Shown: one piece after another, positions 31,632 through 42,965 of the stretch
Layout of the letters: each line of letters opens with the position of its first letter
How positions within the stretch are numbered: position 1 is the first letter of the stretch
NCBI RefSeq assembly: GCF_964213995.1
Contig: NC_135815.1
Location: 50,158,001-50,222,000 of the forward strand
Direction: 5' to 3'
Source: Mustelus asterias
Taxonomy: Eukaryota
Length of the DNA: 64,000 nt
Made by a program: the position numbers and the translations under genes
Notes under the pieces: model-generated
Told to the model about the DNA's origin: nothing
Databases searched by the model: none
Seen by the model: only the letters and a program-made list of their open reading frames with translations

Positions 31632-31972
31632 GGGTGGCACGGTAGCACAGTGATTAGCACTGCTGCTTCACAGCTCCAAGGACCTGGGTTCAATTCCCGG
31701 CTTGGGTCACTGTCTGTGTGGAGTTTGCACATTCTCCTCGTGTCTGCGTGGGTTTCCTCCGGGTGCTCCAGTTTCCTCCCACAGTCCAAAGATGTGCGGG
31801 TTAGGTTGATTGGCCATGCTAAAATTGCCCCTTAGTGTCCTGGGATGCGTAGATTAGAGGGATTAGTGGGTAAAATATGTAGGGATAAGGGGGTAGGGCC
31901 CGGGTGGGGTTGTGGTCGGTGCAGACTCGATGGGCCGAATGGCCTCTTTCTGTACTGTAGGGTTTCTATGAA
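31632..31972 (+). mobile_element. Full-length HE1/V-type SINE
   Basis: tRNA head, central domain, tail; near-identical to 37639-37961. Confidence 0.9.
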
Positions 31973-33930: not shown

Positions 33931-34175
33931 CAGATAGCGAATGAAAACCCGTTGCGGCCATCTTAGTAAAGGAGACCCGAATCGATAGGCGAATCTGGTG
34001 GCCATCCTAGTAAAGGAGACACTGATCGATGACTAGTTTAGTAAAGGACTCTCAATCGATGACCGAGTCCGATAGCCATCCGAGTAAAGGAGATCCGAAT
34101 AGATGGCCGGATCCGGTGGCCATCATAGTAAAGGAGACTCTAATAGATGGCCCGTTTAGTAAAGGAGACTCATTT
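33885..34175. promoter_or_regulatory. Putative MTIF2 promoter: YY1-like GCCGCCAT, ZNF143/SBS-like TTCCCACAATACAC and six imperfect (GGCCATCN)TAGTAAAGGAGAC repeats
   Basis: Motifs read directly; locally CpG-rich in a CpG-poor background. Confidence 0.5.
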
Positions 34176-34380
34176 CCGAGCGTTTCACAATCCATGAGTA
34201 GCTTAGGCGTTGAGGTTGACCAGCTTTACACAATTTGACAGCGCCGATTCCAACATTAAAAGTGACTACGGTTCAAAAATACTTTATTGGCGGCAAAGTG
34301 CTCAGGAGTGTTCAGTGATCGTGAGCCGTGCTATATAAATGCAAATCTTTCTATGAGGCCAAGATCTGTTATGATTCCTC

Positions 34381-34441
34381 TTACAGTTGAATAGTATGAT
34401 AATATTCATGCGATGAATATTATCTTACTATTCAACTGTAA
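34381..34441. repeat. AT-rich palindrome, 29-bp arms, 3-nt loop, 1 mismatch
   Basis: ttacagttgaatagtatgataatattcat-gcg-atgaatattatcttactattcaactgtaa. Confidence 0.9.
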
Positions 34442-35108
34442 GCTGGCCACCAGATTCGCCCATCTATTCGTATAGAAATAGCTGGAACAATAACAATAGA
34501 ATTTGCAATTTTCTATTGCTTTATCATTTCTGTATTATAGTATGGTTCTGAAGCACATTCAATCAGTCGTAACATTTACAGTTTTATTGGTCAAAAAGGA
34601 CTGGGACAAGAAAAAGGACATAAAAATTGCATAAAGTGATTTTTATCCACCGAGCCAGTGACTTCCTCTGCCCTTTCCCTCTTTTCCATTCTAATACCTT
34701 TTTAAATTAAGTCATTGCCTCTGTCTCCAGTAGCTATTCTGGTAAAACATTCCTTATTCTAATAATTTTCTATGAAAACATTTTTAACTTCACCCTCACC
34801 CTTCCTCCCCCCTTGCTCTTCGAGTCATAATCGTCAGGTCTTGACTCATTTTCCTCAATTTGCTGTTACCATCCCAGCTGATGTTGCTACTGTCGGGCGG
34901 CATGGTGGCATAGTGGTTAGTACGACTGCCTCACAGTGCCAGGGACCCCGTGTTCGATTACTGGTTGGGTCACTGTGTGGAGTTTGCATGTTCTTCCTTT
35001 GTCTGCGTGGGGATGCTCTGGTTTCCTCCCACAATCCAAACAATGTGCTGATTAGGTGCATTGGCCATGCTAAATTGTTCCTCAGTGTACCCGAACAGGC
35101 ATTGGAGT

Positions 35109-35348
35109 TGATGCACTACCAATCAAGCAAAGACTAGTTCGTATGCAAGAACAAATAGGCTTTTATTCGCAAAAGATTTGGAGCACACCCATGCTGATCA
35201 ACTGGTCCGGCGACTGAGGCAGGGGGGTTGGGAGCAGTCACCTTTATACCTGGACCAGGGGGGGAGGAGTCTCAGGCAGGGCCGGCAGGGGCATGCCCAG
35301 GCATGTCACACACACACACAGGCAATAGCTTAACAGTGGTTTACCACA
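35109..35348 (-). repeat. 3' LTR (240 bp)
   Basis: Direct repeat of 39463-39714. Confidence 0.95.
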
Positions 35349-35589
35349 TTCACCCCCTGCTTTTAAAAAAGAGTCTGGCGGGGGTGAAGTGGGTGGAACG
35401 ATATTTACAGAATTACAAATTTACAAATTCAATCTCTCTGGGGGCTTGATCTGCCGCTGCAACCGCCGTAGTGCCGGTTGTGGTGTCGGTTCCGGTGGCC
35501 GCGGTGTTGGTTCAGGCACCAGGCCGTAGTCGCTCGAGTCGTCTGTAGTCCCTTCCGACAGTCGGGTGCGTGGTGGCGGCTCCTGGGGC

Positions 35590-38226
35590 TCAGGCGTGCT
35601 GTATACGGGGGTTGGGGGTGTGGGGTTGTGGGTTGTCGTGGTCCCTGGGGCACCTGCGGGTGCCAGGTCTCAAATGGAGACCGTGTCCTCCTGCCCGTCG
35701 TGGTACGCCACATAGGCGTATTGGGAGCTGGACCCTTTCGACCAGGGGGTCCGACTTATGGGTCCTCACATGCTTCGGGAGCAGGACAGGGCCTGGGGAC
35801 GTCAGCCACGACGGTAGTGAGGTCCCTGAGGAGGACTTCCTGGGGAAAACAAACATTCTTTCATGAGGGGTAGTATTGGTAGCTGTGCAAAGGAGTGATC
35901 TAATCGAGTGTAGTGCATCAGGGAGGACCTCTTGCCAGCGGGTGACTGGAAGTCCTTTAGACCTCAGAGCTAGTAAAACGGCCTTCCAAACTGTCACGTT
36001 CTCCCTCTCTACCTGTCCGTTCCCCCTGGGGTTGTAGCTGGTGGTCCTACTCGAGGCTATGCCTTTGGAGAGCAGGTACTGTCGCAGCTCATCACTCATA
36101 AAGGAGGATCCCCGGTCGCTATGGATATAGCTAGGGAAACCGAACAGGGTGAAGGGGCTGTGCAGGGCCCTGATGACCGTGGCTGAGGTCATATCCAGGT
36201 AGGGAATAGCGAAGGGGAAACGTGAATATTCGTCAATGATGTTGAGGAAGTATATATGTTGTGGTCAGAAGAGGGGAGGGGGCCTTTGAAGTCGACGCTT
36301 AGGCGTTTGAAAGGGCGGGTAGCCTTTATGAGGTGTGCTCTGTCTGGCCGCTAGAAGTGCGGCTTGCACTCTGCGCAGACCTGGCAGTGTCTGGTTATAG
36401 ACCTGACTTCCTCAATGGAGTAGGGCAGGTTATGGGCTTTAATGAAGTGAAAAAACCTGGTGACCCCCGGGTGGCAGAGGTCGTTGTGGAGAGTCTGCAA
36501 TTGATCTATTTGTGCACTGGCACATATTCCCCGGGACAAGGCGCCTGGGGGCTCATTGAGCTTCCCGGGCCGGTATAAGATGTCGTAATTGTAGGTGGAA
36601 AGCTCGATTCTCCACCTCAATATTTTATCATTTTTGATCTTGCCCCGCTGCGTGTTGTTAAACATGAATGCAACTGACCGTTGGTCCATGAGTAGGGTGA
36701 ATCGTTTACCAGCTAAGTAGTGGTGCCAGTGCCATACAGCTTCCACTGTGGCTTGGGCCTCCTTCTAGACAGAGGAGTGTCGAATTTCAGGGCCTTGGAG
36801 GGTTCGTGAGAAGAAGGCCACAAGTCTGCCCGCCTGGTTAAGGGTGGCGGCTAGGGTGAAGTCAGACACATCGCTCTCCACCTGGAACGGGATGGATTCG
36901 TCTACAGTGTGCATCGTGGCCTTCGCAATGTCTGCTTTGATGCGGTCGAAGGCCAGGCGGGCCTCTGCCGTCAGGGGAAAAGAGGTGGATTTGATGAGCG
37001 GACGGGCTTTATCCGCATAATTGGGGACCCACTGGGTGTAATACAAGAAGAAGCCCAGACATCTCCTCAGTGCTTTGAGGCTGGTGGGGAGGGGAAGTTC
37101 CAGGAGGGGACGCATGCGGTCGGGATCGGGACCGATGACCCCGATTTTCACAACGCAACCAAGGATGGCGAGGCGGCGTGTGCGGAATACGCACTTCTCC
37201 TTATTATAGGTCAGATTTAGGAGTGTGGCGGTGTGGAGGAATTTGTGGAGGTTGGTGTCGTGGTCCTGCTGATCATGGCCGCAGATGGTGATGTTATCCA
37301 GGTACGGGAAGGTGGCCCGCAGCCCATTCTGGTCTACCATTCGGTCCATCTCACGCTGGAAAACCGAGACCCCGTTGGTGACGCCGAAGGGGACCCTAAG
37401 GAAGTGATAGAGGCGGCCATCCGCCTCGAAGGCAGTATATTGGCGGTCTTCCGGGCGGATAGGGAGCTGGTGGTATGCAGATTTTAAGTCGATGGTGGAG
37501 AACACCCGATATTACGCAATCTGATTAATCATGTCAGATATGCGGGGAAGGGGGTACGCGTCCAGCTGCGTGTAGCGGTTAATGGTCTGACTGTAGTCAA
37601 TGACCATGTGATGTTTCTCCCCAGTCTTAACAACTACTAGAAACATAGAAACCCTACAGTGCAGAAGGAGGCCATTCGGCCCATCGAGTCTGCACCGACC
37701 ACAAGCCCACCCAGGCCCTACCCCCACATATTTACCTGCTAATCCCTCAAATCTACGCATGTCAGGGGCAATTTTAACCTGGCCAATCAACCTAACCCGC
37801 ACATCTTTGGACTGTGGGAGGAAACCGGAGCACCCGGAGGAAACCCACGCAGACACGAGGAGAATGTGCAAACTCCACACAGACAGTGACCCGAGCCGGG
37901 AATCGAACCCGGGACCCTGGAGCTGTGAAGCAGCAGTGCTAACCACTGTGCTACCGTGCCGCTACTTGGGCTCTCCAGGGGCTGGTACTGGCCTCGATGA
38001 TCCCCTCCCCTAGGAGCTGTTGTACTTCAGACCTGATAAAAGCCCTGTCTCCAGCACTGTACCATCTGTTCTTGGTGGTGATGGGCTTGCAATCAGGGGT
38101 GAGATTTTCAAACAGTGAGGGGGGGGCGACTTTAAGGGTCGAGAGGCTGCAGGTGGTGCGTGGTGGGTGATTTAAGAACTGGTGATTGCAAACAGAGAGC
38201 GGAGGAAAAGGCCCATTATACTCCAT
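35590..38226 (-). pseudogene. Disrupted pol (RT, RNase H, integrase)
   Basis: IDLKSAYHQ, VPFGVTNG, YLDN, RNase H ESDVSD, HHCC (H..HPG..CQVC), IHSDRGSSF, GNGQVERE. Confidence 0.92.
37639..37961 (-). mobile_element. Young full-length HE1/V-type SINE inserted into Gypsy pol
   Basis: Interrupts SPWRAQV|VVKTGEK; flanked by ctact. Confidence 0.92.
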
Positions 38227-38283
38227 GGTGACACTTTTAAGGTGACACGGGAAATCTAGCCCCAGGAGTACAGCAGCGCAGAG

Positions 38284-39440
38284 TTATGGCAGCACGAGGA
38301 GCCTGAAGTTTTTGTACACTGTGCCCCGTACAGTCAGGGTCGCCACGCAGTACCCGAGGACATCCACCGAGTGGGACTTTGAAGCCATGGAGATTGTTTG
38401 CTTCACTGGCAGTACTGAAAGGGCATAGCGACTCACTGTGTTAGGGTGAATAAAGCTCTCTGTACTCCCACAGTCAAATAAACAGTTTGTAGTGCGACCG
38501 TTTACCTCGATGTCCATCATGGACCTGGCAAGTTGGTGAGGCCTGGATTGGTCCAGCGTAACCGAAGCCACCGTTGGATTTTGCGACGCGGCTGAGGGTG
38601 TCCAAGATGGCGGCCCGCACAGCTCACACAAGGCTGAAGGCGTCCAAGATGGCGGGTCGCACGCGACGCTACTGGGCTTGGAGGTCGACTTCGCTCTGCA
38701 TACCTTCGCATAATGGCCCTTCTTTCCACACCCGGAGCAGTTCGCATCCCTCGCCGGGCAGCGTTGTCAGGGATGCTTCCCCAGGCCACAGAAGTAGCAC
38801 TTCGGGCCTCCAGAGACTGCCGCAGCGGTCGGGTCATTGGTGGGACGTGGCATGGCGTAGGCCTGCGGCCCTCCCGAGTACAGAGGTGGTGGCGACTGCG
38901 GCGTCCACGATGCGTCCCCGTGGTCGGGGGTGTAGGCCTCGTGATTACGGAAGGCCACCTCTAACGAGTCGGCAAGCGCTACAGTCTTTTGTAGATCCAG
39001 CCCACCCTGTTCCAGCAGTCGTTGTCGGATATAGTTTGACCTGATACCCGTGACATAGGCATCTCTGATTAAGTCCTCAGTGTTTTGGGCGGCTGTTACG
39101 GCCTTGCAGTTGCAGGCCCTGCCAAGTGCTCGCAACGCATGCAGGAATTGGTCGTCCGATTCTCCTGGCTGTTGTCTGCGAGTAGCCAGAAGATGTCTGG
39201 TGTAGATTACTGGCTTTTTAAAAGTTCGATCGCATCCTCGTAAGTTTCAGCGTCTCTCATCATCGAGAATACTTGATCGCTTACCCGGGCATGGAGCACG
39301 TGTAGCTTGTCGGTTTCGGTCCGGATGACGGAGGCGGTGAGGAAAGTTTCGAAACATCGCAGCCAGTGATCGAAGCTGTTAGAGGCTCCTACGGCTTGAG
39401 GATCCAATTCTAATCTATTGGGTTTTAGTATCTGCTCCAT
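38284..39440 (-). pseudogene. Disrupted gag and protease of the Gypsy element
   Basis: MEQILKPNRLELDP..., IRDAYVTG..IRQRLLE, CYFCG..H knuckle, CLFDCGSTESFI protease motif; split across several ORFs. Confidence 0.85.
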
Positions 39441-39462
39441 CCCATTTTTTTGCAAATAAAAT

Positions 39463-39714
39463 TGATGCACTATCAATCAAGCAAAGACTAGTTCGTATGC
39501 AAAAACAAATAGGCTTTTATTCGCAAAAGATTTGGAGCACACCCATGCTGATGAACTGGTCCGGTGACTGAGGCAGGGGGGTTGGGAGCAGTCACCTTTA
39601 TACCTGGACCAGGGGGGGAGGAGTCTCAGGCAGGGCCGGCAGGGGCATGCCCAGGCATGTCTCACACACACACACACACACACACAGGCAATAGCTTAAC
39701 AGTGGTTTACCACA
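39463..39714 (-). repeat. 5' LTR (252 bp)
   Basis: Differs from the 3' LTR by about 4 substitutions plus a longer (CA)n; TATAAA and AATAAA on the minus strand. Confidence 0.95.
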
Positions 39715-41294
39715 GGAGTGTGACGACTAGGGGATTTTCACAGTAACTTCATCACTACTTGTGACACTAATAAATAAACTTAAAAACAGTCAGTCCCAGA
39801 ATGGAACCCTGACTTAGACTATAACTTATTTTTTGTTTAGAGACGGGTCACAGGACTGCTAGTTAACTTTTAGCAAAAGAATAAAACATGAAACGATTGA
39901 CTTTAATAGAATGTTCTTTCACCCCACCTGTATCTTCATAGATGTACATAGATTTTTAAGGATAACACAATTTACAAATATATCATATACTTTAATATTC
40001 TCAGTATCTACACAGTACATGTAAACCAACAGGCCAACTGTGGTCAGACACAATACACTCTCAAACCAAGTGGCAGATGCCACGCAATACAATTTTCTGT
40101 GGATTTCTCATCAAGTGCCCCCAAATGCTTGATTGTGAGCCAACTGGTCTCACTGGAACTCCAAACTTCTACACAAGTAAATCCAAATTCCACTCTCAAA
40201 AAACAGGCCTTAGAACCATCTTCCAAACAACACTTTCTCTTTAGAGAGATTTAAATCTCTCCTTTCAGTATTCTTAAGCTCTACATTGCCACGTGTATTC
40301 AAATGTCCACACAATATGTCAGGTACCCAGCCATGCCAACAGACCACTACTGCTTCATAGAACGTGCTAAGGTCACAAACCTTAGATTACTTCAGATATT
40401 TGACTTCTCACTAGCCAACCAGGTTGACCTCAGATTAATAAAGCATCAGAATACAGCATTGCCAGGATGCACTTTCACCTACTTTAGTTCACAGTTAATC
40501 TTTAACAAAGAGCCTTACATGCTTTCTGATAAGAAGTGATATATTTATATCTTCTCACTGTTTATTTTCAAGACTATGACCTTGATGGCTTGCGTCTCCC
40601 AGTTATTGTAAGGAATGTTTCACTTCACATGAGCATTCATGATTTTAATAACCATTAGGTTTTTTTTGGTTCCCCATTTTCCAGTCCAATTACTGACTCT
40701 ATTTTGAGGACACAGTCAATGCAATTCTTAGGGCATTCTTCGTACAAAAAAATTATTTTTGATGTGCAATTACTCTTATTATGCAGGCAAACATCAAAGG
40801 GGCGGGGAGGGAAGGACAAATGAAATGGTTTATGGTAGAAAAAAGGCATTTGGGCTTTCCTTACCTCTCAAAAATACCAGAGGCTCAGCCAGGGGATTAG
40901 AGTATGCAGTACATTTCCTCAGCCCAACATCACTCACTTATAGTTTTGTTGTTTCCTCCCATTCAACCAATTTCTTAGCCACCTCGAAACTGAAAGACGC
41001 AGTGCCTATAGCTTTGTATATCACCCTTTCATTTGGAACTTTATTAAAGGCTTTTTGCAAGTTTAGGCCCACCGTATGATAGGACCTCCCAAGGTCCTCA
41101 TAGGATGTCACTTTCTCAAAAAGAACAATATTGGCTGGAAAGCATCTGTACCTCCTGAAGTTACATTGGTTGCCATTTAATGGGCTATTTAAAGAAATGT
41201 GGAATAATACTCATTAATTACAGGTTATTTTGTCTTCTGAGTTCACACAAGTCTGCTGCAATCTTCTGAGGTTTGTTCTGGCAATGGTGTTCTC

Positions 41295-41968
41295 GATGTG
41301 GAGATGCCGGCGTTGGACTGGGGTAAACACAGTAAGAAGTTTAACAACACCAGGTTAAAGTCCAACAGGTTTATTTGGTAGCAAAAGCCACACAAGCTTT
41401 CGGAGCTGCAAGCCCCTTCTTCAGGTGAGTGGGAATTCTGTTCACAAACAGAGCATATAAAGACACAAACTCAATTTACATGAATAATGGTTGGAATACG
41501 AATACTTACAACTAATCAAGTCTTTAAGAAACAAAACAACATGAGTGGAGAGAGCATCAAGACAGGCTAAAAAGATGTGTATTGTCTCCAGACAAGACAG
41601 CCAGTGAAACTCTGTGGGGGTTCCGCACACACGAGGACGGCCTCAACCGGGATATTGGGTTCATGTCACATTATTTGTAACCCCCACAGAGTTTCACTGG
41701 CTGTCTTGTCTGGAGACAATACACATCTTTTTAGCCTGTCTTGATGCTCTCTCCACTCATGTTGTTTTGTTTCTTAAAGACTTGATTAGTTGTAAGTATT
41801 CGCATTCCAACCATTATTCATGTAAATTGAGTTTGTGTCTTTATATGCTCTGTTTGTGAACAGAATTCCCACTCACCTGAAGAAGGGGCTTGCAGCTCCG
41901 AAAGCTTGTGTGGCTTTTGCTACCAAATAAACCTGTTGGACTTTAACCTGGTGTTGTTAAACTTCTTA
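41295..41968. mobile_element. Penelope-like fold-back insertion: 290-bp inverted arms, GIY-YIG C-terminal spacer, tail on the left arm
   Basis: Arms 41333-41622 / 41679-41968 (1 mismatch seen); spacer FRTHEDGLNRDIGFMSHYL*; 12-bp TSD aatggtgttctc (41283-41294, 41968-41979). Confidence 0.92.
41874..41910 (+). ncRNA. Minimal hammerhead ribozyme motif (mirror copy in the left arm)
   Basis: cac-CUGAAGA-A-GGGGCU/UGC/AGCUCC-GAAA-GC-UU-gug. Confidence 0.78.
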
Positions 41969-42965
41969 ATGGTGTTCTCATCAGAGATTCTTTAAGTTGG
42001 TTTATTAATGTAGCAAAATTCACCCAAGAAGTCTTTCTCCTTGATAATCTTGCTGATGATTGGTCACTATAAGATTGCTAGTTCCTTGCTTTTTATCAGT
42101 TGCTGACATACATTGTGGATTCTATCAAGAACGATGCTTCATTGTTGCAGAAAGTGCAGTGTTGTTCTGGAACACTAACATTCATTACTGAGAGTTCAGT
42201 AAAGTACAGTATCAATGCATCAGCCACACTTTGAATATACTAAAGGAACCCATCTTTAGCAAACTTGATATCCATTTTAAGTTTCTGCCTGCAAATTCTT
42301 TGATCTTGTATTAGCAAATCTCTCCAGATGTTAGCTTCTTGCCTTTATTGTTTCAACATATGTTTATATCTCAATATCAGTAGCTGATCATTCTGTATTT
42401 TCACTCAGCTTCTTGGACACAGTTTCTGTTACAATTAAGTTTTTCCCTGGGACATATTTCCTTTTACAAATGATACTGTTACATTACATCATTTAGCATG
42501 TTCAGCAGCTTCATCAATAGTCCCAGCTTATTATATTCTCTTGCATTTTTAGAAAGTATTGACATTGGAACCTCTTAAAGTATATTCATAGTATAAGGGA
42601 AGACATCATCCACAATCTTTACAGGCTCACACTTGAGCAGATCATTGTTTCCAATACACCAGCGTGGATTTCACTGTAATAATACAGTGAGGTTATCAGC
42701 ATTGGTCATAATTACAGGATAAACATGACAGAAATGTCTGGCGTCCACATGTACAGTTAAATGCAGAAATCCAGAAGTTGCCACATCTGGAAACACATGC
42801 TGGTCCTCAGTCCATGAGAAATGATGACATGTAGCTTTAAAGAGGTGTATCTTGAATGACTGCCAATCATTACCCACCTCAACAGGATGTATTAGTCCTA
42901 TAATTGTTGGTCAGTCTATGAGCAACAGTGATAGAAGTCAGATGTACCATGTTAAGCTCCCAGTG

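Follow-up and report, generated by a model that had tools for sequence, protein, structure and literature searches.

Complementarity between the 5' long terminal repeat and the primer-binding-site position points to probable self-priming in a chromodomain-less Gypsy lineage of animals

A 64,000-nucleotide stretch of the Mustelus asterias genome (contig NC_135815.1, positions 50,158,001 to 50,222,000), here called the window, was found to contain a Ty3/Gypsy retrotransposon on its minus strand. Part of this element's 5' long terminal repeat (LTR) is complementary to the sequence just past it, at the primer-binding-site position. The 5' LTR (TG...CA, 252 nt) lies at 39463-39714, and a repeat match places the 3' LTR (240 nt) at 35109-35348; the pair differ at 4 of 240 aligned positions and by one 12-nt microsatellite gap. 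A target-site duplication, ACTCC, is present upstream (39715-39719) and downstream (35104-35108), and a polypurine tract (PPT) with final bases AA (35349-35364) adjoins the 3' LTR. The TG...CA repeats, the duplication and the PPT are all hallmarks of Ty3/Gypsy elements. Between the LTRs is gag-pol (35649-39440), which starts with an ATG at 39440, 22 nt past the 5' LTR, and encodes Gag with two CCHC-type knuckles, protease, reverse transcriptase (RT, with the motif YLDN), RNase H and integrase. Seven stops within its aligned parts and several shifts of frame break this reading frame, and one short interspersed repeat, visible as a gap between aligned segments and not assigned to a strand, is inserted in pol (37640-37960, approximate ends). 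The window element is a dead copy.

On the element strand, the terminal CA of the 5' LTR is followed by a one-base spacer, A (39462), and then by the site sequence TTTTATTTGCAAAA at 39461-39448, which is not of the TGG type. The complementary sequence TTTTGCGAATAAAA, designated arm X and here considered the candidate self-primer, is located inside the 5' LTR at 39528-39515. Together they form 14 contiguous pairs, 13 Watson-Crick and one G-U (39522 with 39454), so that the initial annotation had described this pairing correctly, along with an AATAAA in the LTR partner (39521-39516) and a gag ATG about 22 nt past the LTR. The loop between the arms (39466-39514) begins GCCT and contains a bulged stem, and the predicted cut discussed below would fall at, or within 1 nt of, 39515/39514. 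The 3' LTR carries its own copy of arm X at 35174-35161, with no partner site downstream. When the LTR was dinucleotide-shuffled 1000 times, the best shuffle had 10 Watson-Crick pairs and none had 13. When real 260-nt tiles from elsewhere in the window were used instead (n = 450), one reached 14 pairs and the rest 11 or fewer; the pairing in a single copy is therefore suggestive but not decisive, and the decisive evidence comes from relatives. The fold of the whole region lay just modestly beyond shuffles (z of -1.3 for 151 nt and -2.0 for 95 nt), and an Rfam search over 34500-40500 gave no matches at E <= 1, and so no known ribozyme or tRNA-like family.

A search with the RT gave 1166 matches at E <= 1e-20, and taxonomy was taken from the 120 listed. 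Among the matches listed, the closest named relatives were sharks and rays, mostly at 79-82% identity, and further relatives were found in cnidarians, a nematode and an ant; a scan of viral contigs for relatives found none. Using an alignment of the Gag N-terminus, a set was drawn up from 80 of 172 confirmed metagenome loci and three loci from metagenome-assembled genomes (MAGs). One locus without a gag start (L074) was dropped, and the remaining 82 and the window copy were grouped into 38 families at 80% DNA identity. A pairing partner was sought for the 12 bases starting one base past a CA near the ATG. At this anchor at least 11 of the 12 bases were paired in 29 of the 38 gag families, as opposed to 3 of 573 interior control positions. 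The LTR end was set independently by the 3' LTR and proved to be the same CA in 12 of 14 loci where the repeat was found (five families), three of the 12 agreements including 1-2 flank bases that match by chance. A 5-bp duplication could be read by eye in 11 loci, but not in L016.

Across the 29 families the helix is 12-20 bp long, and arm X lies 24-72 nt upstream of the site. The spacer is A in 27 of them, and the position just inside the helix (the spacer opposite the base after X) is unpaired in all 29. The polarity is the one required for priming, X having its 3' end towards the end of the LTR. Sites start with TTT in 26 families, TCT in two and TTA in one, and TGG was not seen; 27 distinct 12-mers occur among the 29 sites, and a G stands ten bases before the end of the arm in 26. 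Each site pairs with its own LTR at 10-12 of 12 bases, whereas against the arms of other families the mean is 7.4 and 4 of 812 cross pairs reach 12. No standard tRNA genes were detected by ARAGORN in 84 element sequences.

Some further observations were made on these loci. Several of the nine families that fell outside the paired set appear truncated or rearranged. Five entries (L081, L082, L083, P0014 and P0054) are animal-type Gypsy sequences in contigs filed as bacterial MAGs, and are most likely misbinned host DNA. In L044 (1-1440) the arrangement is tandem, with the LTR before gag preceded by the integrase end of another copy, which may be an artefact of assembly or of a circle. The PPT was found to end in AA before the TG in seven of ten loci sought, with three not matched (window 35349-35350; L001, L010, L011, L015, L016 and L083). 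The other LTR end reads CA-A-T, which with the AA of the PPT may define a 2-base overhang for integrase.

To describe covariation, the best copy of each of the 29 families, picked by pairing score, was aligned. Of 377 cells 376 were paired, and 12 of the 13 pairs showed two-sided changes, amounting to 95 such cells. No shuffle out of 500 reached the observed value for four measures, and one did so for a fifth. Slid registers paired at 27-45%, compared with the fixed register. Since the copies had been chosen by pairing, the count was redone with anchors taken from motifs alone. At positions 4-13 of 48 loci this gave 460 Watson-Crick pairs, 18 mismatches and 2 G-U pairs in a total of 480; it started from 84 sequences, of which 36 were not counted (8 with ambiguous anchors and 28 without the motif pair or with too little DNA upstream). 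One check that the initial annotation had named in advance was whether relatives keep the complementarity, and these results show that they do. Change was also seen within a single family: compared with its near-identical sister copies, L009 has the same substitution in the 5' and the 3' copies of X and a matching one in the site. In contigs of close relatives of the window copy, the variable arm positions listed were 39454 and 39522 alone, which are partners, and the variant shares at these two were 55% and 50% in run X3 and 59% and 64% in run X4. The conserved core is the register of the helix relative to the LTR end, not the AATAAA. A single mismatch between arm and site was noted in L028, L029, L030, L055, L062 and L069; these may be intermediates in a two-step co-change, or decay.

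Arm X ends in AAA or a near variant (AAA itself in 26 of 29 families), and the next three bases are GCC or ACC in 26 of 29. The poly(A)-type hexamer A[A/T]TAAA lies inside the arm in 20 families, and nine arms are without a canonical one; among these nine, one hexamer spans the end of the arm and one looks decayed. Four families have a hexamer in the loop, beyond the cover of the helix. By predicted folding, the hexamer of the window copy is unpaired with a probability of 0.00-0.02 in the 5' LTR, compared with 0.23-0.30 in the 3' LTR, and it was less accessible in the 5' context in all eight relatives tested. A second stem of at least 4 bp starts from the first base after X, opened by RCC, in 21 of 29 families (shuffles gave a mean of 4.2 and a maximum of 11), and in most relatives it is a short RCCU...AGGY hairpin beginning at the first loop base. 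G-U pairs make up 19 of 99 in this second stem, a share somewhat inflated by stem selection, and 2 of 480 in the main helix.

Candidate start-site signals were also located in the window copy. A candidate TATA box, TATAAA, lies at 39597-39602, 74 nt upstream of the arm, and 31 nt past it is TCAGTC (39566-39571), which is initiator-like and makes a position near 39569 a candidate transcription start. The odds are about even between X being the 5' terminus of the RNA, which is the case in Tf1, and X being preceded by about 40 nt of a capped leader. A conserved T-N-A-G-T-T is found 13-8 bases before the end of the arm, and could possibly serve as an initiator-like start giving a Tf1-like primer of 11 nt, yet the pairing reaches position 13 in 28 of the 29 families. 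In three of the 29 families (L020, L022 and L081), CCGCCAT, presumably a YY1-type site, occurs 26-42 nt upstream of arm X and is a possible start-site element.

The coding region places these elements among Gypsy retrotransposons. Pfam domains for protease, RT, RNase H and integrase occur in Gypsy order, and the nearest solved relative is Ty3 Gag-Pol (E 2.5e-74). Full-length relatives have a single open reading frame (ORF) of about 1200 residues. Of 58 full-length proteins, 52 carry two CCHC-type knuckles, and the proteins end 54-136 residues past the last conserved integrase motif. A chromodomain was found in none of 36 full-length relatives, and there was no Chromo among the 14 Pfam families matched at E <= 0.01; the lineage is therefore not filed under the Tf1/sushi chromoviruses. 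Its two knuckles and missing chromodomain fit the definition of the Mag lineage (two CCHC knuckles in Gag, no chromodomain), and together with a motif resemblance these two features are the basis for tentatively calling it "Mag-like". The RT motif is YxDN rather than YxDD in 100 of 121 motifs from 120 homologues among the matches listed (window RT region 36765-37511, minus strand). The helix occurs with both forms, in 28 of 29 loci with N and 2 of 4 with D for which the motif could be read. No literature linking a YLDN motif to gypsy retrotransposons was found, nor was the RT motif found in the readable supplements of PMC6238403. The ESM Atlas gave generic Gag clusters alone. A gag tree was tried for placement but was poorly resolved and misplaced the window copy, whose translation leaves frame, and it was not used.

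We suggest, with a probability of roughly 0.78, that this chromodomain-less Gypsy lineage, widespread in animals, primes reverse transcription from its own RNA in the manner of Tf1, and that the window holds a dead copy of it. In the RNA, the 12-20 nt right past the 5' LTR pair with arm X of the same LTR, as the covariation shows. By analogy with Tf1, the RNase H of the element would cut the RNA at the 3' end of X, before the conserved RCC that opens the second stem, so that a 3'-OH would remain one base away from where the LTR ends. RT would then copy U5 and the short part of R that lies 3' of the cut, and jump to the 3' end. The hexamer would usually be in the last bases of X because the poly(A) site must fall between the cut and the LTR end, and loops of down to 24 nt would therefore force it there. 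Plus-strand synthesis would copy the RNA primer and so rewrite the primer site from X in each cycle, as we infer from the near-absence of G-U pairs and the one triple co-change, in L009; copying of the primer into the site would explain both rapid co-change and the lack of G-U pairs. As a predicted side effect, the helix would mask the hexamer of the 5' LTR but not that of the 3' LTR.

A number of points weigh against this reading. The evidence is a pattern of complementarity, and the primer, the cut RNA and the cDNA end are predictions. Nine gag families fell below the cut-off, one being too short, two pairing at 10 bases and six at 8-9. The first covariation set was, as stated, selected on pairing score, and in the motif-based count 28 of 84 sequences had no motif pair or too little upstream DNA. 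Related families share ancestry, so the cells are not independent events, and the two arms that end in AGA belong to sister families. The contig variants are unphased and come from summed contig depth, with 22 rows outside those listed, and in run X1 the shares at 39454 and 39522 disagree (27% and 89%). The innermost A-U pair never varies, and the position of the cut is therefore uncertain by one base. In the window copy a longer bulged stem stands where most relatives have the short second hairpin. Finally, its sole TATA/initiator pair indicates a start about 40 nt upstream of X, whereas in Tf1 the primer is formed by the first 11 bases, and across families TATA keeps no fixed distance, being present in 7 of 29 at 31-122 nt.

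Because X is present in both LTRs, the covariation would fit equally well if the 3' copy were the primer, that is, if the 3' end of the element's own RNA or of a co-packaged one were trimmed to X and paired with the site. No internal cut near the 5' end would then be needed, and R would reach from the start site as far as X; if transcription began upstream, R would be longer for strand transfer, and X, ending in AAA in 26 of 29 families and often within a poly(A) hexamer, would lie near the RNA end. We regard this as unlikely. Processing of 3' ends cuts downstream of the hexamer and then adds a tail, so that any trimming back to X would need to go through the conserved stem on its 3' side, whereas the 5' copy is just 24-72 nt from the site and folds onto it, and the precedent in Tf1 is 5'. 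It is also quite unlikely that the sole role of the helix is to mask the poly(A) signal of the 5' LTR, or else the region where gag starts, with priming by another route. The hexamer inside the arm in 20 of 29 families would suit such a role, as would its predicted masking in the 5' LTR, which recurs in eight of eight relatives. However, pairing and register persist in the nine arms without a canonical hexamer, and four families have a loop hexamer outside the helix. Were the role structural alone, G-U pairs should be tolerated as they are in the stem next to it (19 of 99), while the main helix has 2 of 480; nor would such a helix have to stop precisely one base away from where the LTR ends, and the element would be left without a primer. 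The occlusion of the poly(A) signal that the initial annotation had proposed for this helix is thus plausible as a side effect, given the predicted accessibility, but it does not form the conserved core and, with 9 of 29 arms lacking A[A/T]TAAA, can be at most a second function.

Priming by a host tRNA, a tRNA half or another small RNA, with the match to the LTR being incidental, is very improbable on the evidence of the site sequences. Half-tRNA priming is known in Copia lineages, according to the accessible part of PMC6317226, and the sites do share a loose pattern (TTT in 26 of 29 and a G ten bases before the end of the arm in 26 of 29). Against this, none of the 29 families has a site starting with TGG, 27 of the 29 sites differ and each matches its own LTR, leaving no shared conserved site of the tRNA type, and in L009 site and LTR have changed together within one family. 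TGG is the complement of the CCA end of mature tRNAs. Two other candidates were set aside: a mimic of a tRNA D-arm in X, whose implied stem on inspection is not kept across families, and a splice-junction primer, as by eye the partner of the site is unspliced sequence, with pairing that continues across the AG and the preceding U-run. With a covarying, register-fixed helix and no TGG site in 29 families, the tRNA-independent priming that the initial annotation had put forward is the best explanation. A more specific version goes further than self-priming itself and is tentative, being on balance doubtful. It holds that self-priming arose independently in a large non-chromoviral animal Gypsy lineage and, unlike in Tf1, that the primer is cut inside a longer capped leader at the poly(A)-signal site, with one helix supplying the primer and switching off polyadenylation in the 5' LTR, and an RT in which Asn replaces the second catalytic Asp.

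Several other features of the window lie outside the element. The insertion target is a very high-copy short repeat (39715-39790 and 34970-35108); some contigs join the upstream flank to the downstream flank, as expected of an empty site, and there are loose contig ends at 39715. Comparison of the window with itself showed a second copy of the short interspersed repeat found in pol, at 31636-31970. A near-perfect inverted repeat at 41330-41971, with 293-nt arms that are 99% complementary and 56 nt apart, resembles a miniature inverted-repeat transposable element or a fold-back element. At 33957-34470, short direct repeats of about 98 nt stand beside a 63-nt palindrome (34380-34442), and this region also holds an inverted match (33978-34009/34439-34470).

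If the self-priming reading is true, this would be a second self-priming lineage, one without a chromodomain and ranging from cnidarians to cartilaginous fishes, implying either an independent or a much older origin. The question of origin is relevant to the hypothesis, found in the accessible portion of PMC3601003, that priming by hairpins is older than priming by tRNAs. Such elements would escape control by way of host tRNAs and tRNA fragments, and annotation tools that demand a tRNA site would overlook or wrongly classify them. On a leader this short, cleavage of RNA-RNA duplexes by RNase H could be tested directly, and one LTR sequence could act differently at the two ends of an element.

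In the literature within reach, self-priming in Gypsy elements is described for the Tf1/sushi and Tcn1 chromoviruses, and no account of it in a non-chromoviral animal Gypsy lineage was found there, Repbase and subscription journals being out of reach. To predict self-priming in plant Tcn1 and TAR elements, PMC6317226 (available text) uses as a sequence criterion a complementarity of at least 10 bp starting 0-5 bp past the LTR, which the window element shows. Two other groups, both Ty1/Copia whereas the window element is Gypsy, resemble it in that a tRNA site is replaced by intramolecular pairing, namely the TAR Copia elements and the fungal GalEa elements with their Conserved Hairpin Site (PMC6317226 and PMC5445492, as far as their accessible text goes). 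Pairing in the GalEa hairpin takes place downstream of the LTR, which contains no complement to it, whereas the partner in the window element is inside the LTR. Bivalve TRIMs without a tRNA site have also been reported (PMC6934838, available in part).

Among animal elements, the Mag (A, B and C clades), MolGy, PolGy and LGF groups are similarly compact, single-ORF Gypsy elements with short LTRs in marine invertebrates and fishes, and the double zinc knuckle is a likeness to Mag. The accessible parts of two surveys of mollusc and annelid Gypsy clades (PMC6238403 and PMC8556966) contain no analysis of primer sites, and those of PMC8220671 make generic mention of them.

The Tf1/sushi elements of vertebrates and fungi and plant Tcn1 share with the window lineage the Gypsy domain order and a self-priming predicted from complementarity between site and 5' LTR. 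They differ in being chromoviruses, while the window lineage shows no chromodomain, and 52 of its 58 full-length proteins carry two CCHC-type knuckles. Like it, Tf1 and Tf2 of Schizosaccharomyces pombe and Tj1 of S. japonicus have no tRNA site, and their primer-site position is complementary to their own 5' LTR (PMC7175516, PMC4600332 and PMC5341516, each available in part). The primer of Tf1 consists of the first 11 bases, which pair with the site and are released by an RNase H cut between bases 11 and 12 (accessible text of PMC7175516 and PMC5341516). By comparison, the window lineage pairs over 12-20 nt, usually with a poly(A)-type hexamer at the end of this stretch, which may be part of a longer leader. 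It shows no chromodomain (36 of 36), its RT is mostly of the YxDN form, and its hosts are animals. A second stem beside the predicted cut in the window lineage is a further likeness to Tf1, which, going by the title of one study, reportedly requires a U5-IR-like stem; the Tf1 primer, according to another title, is said not to be removed.
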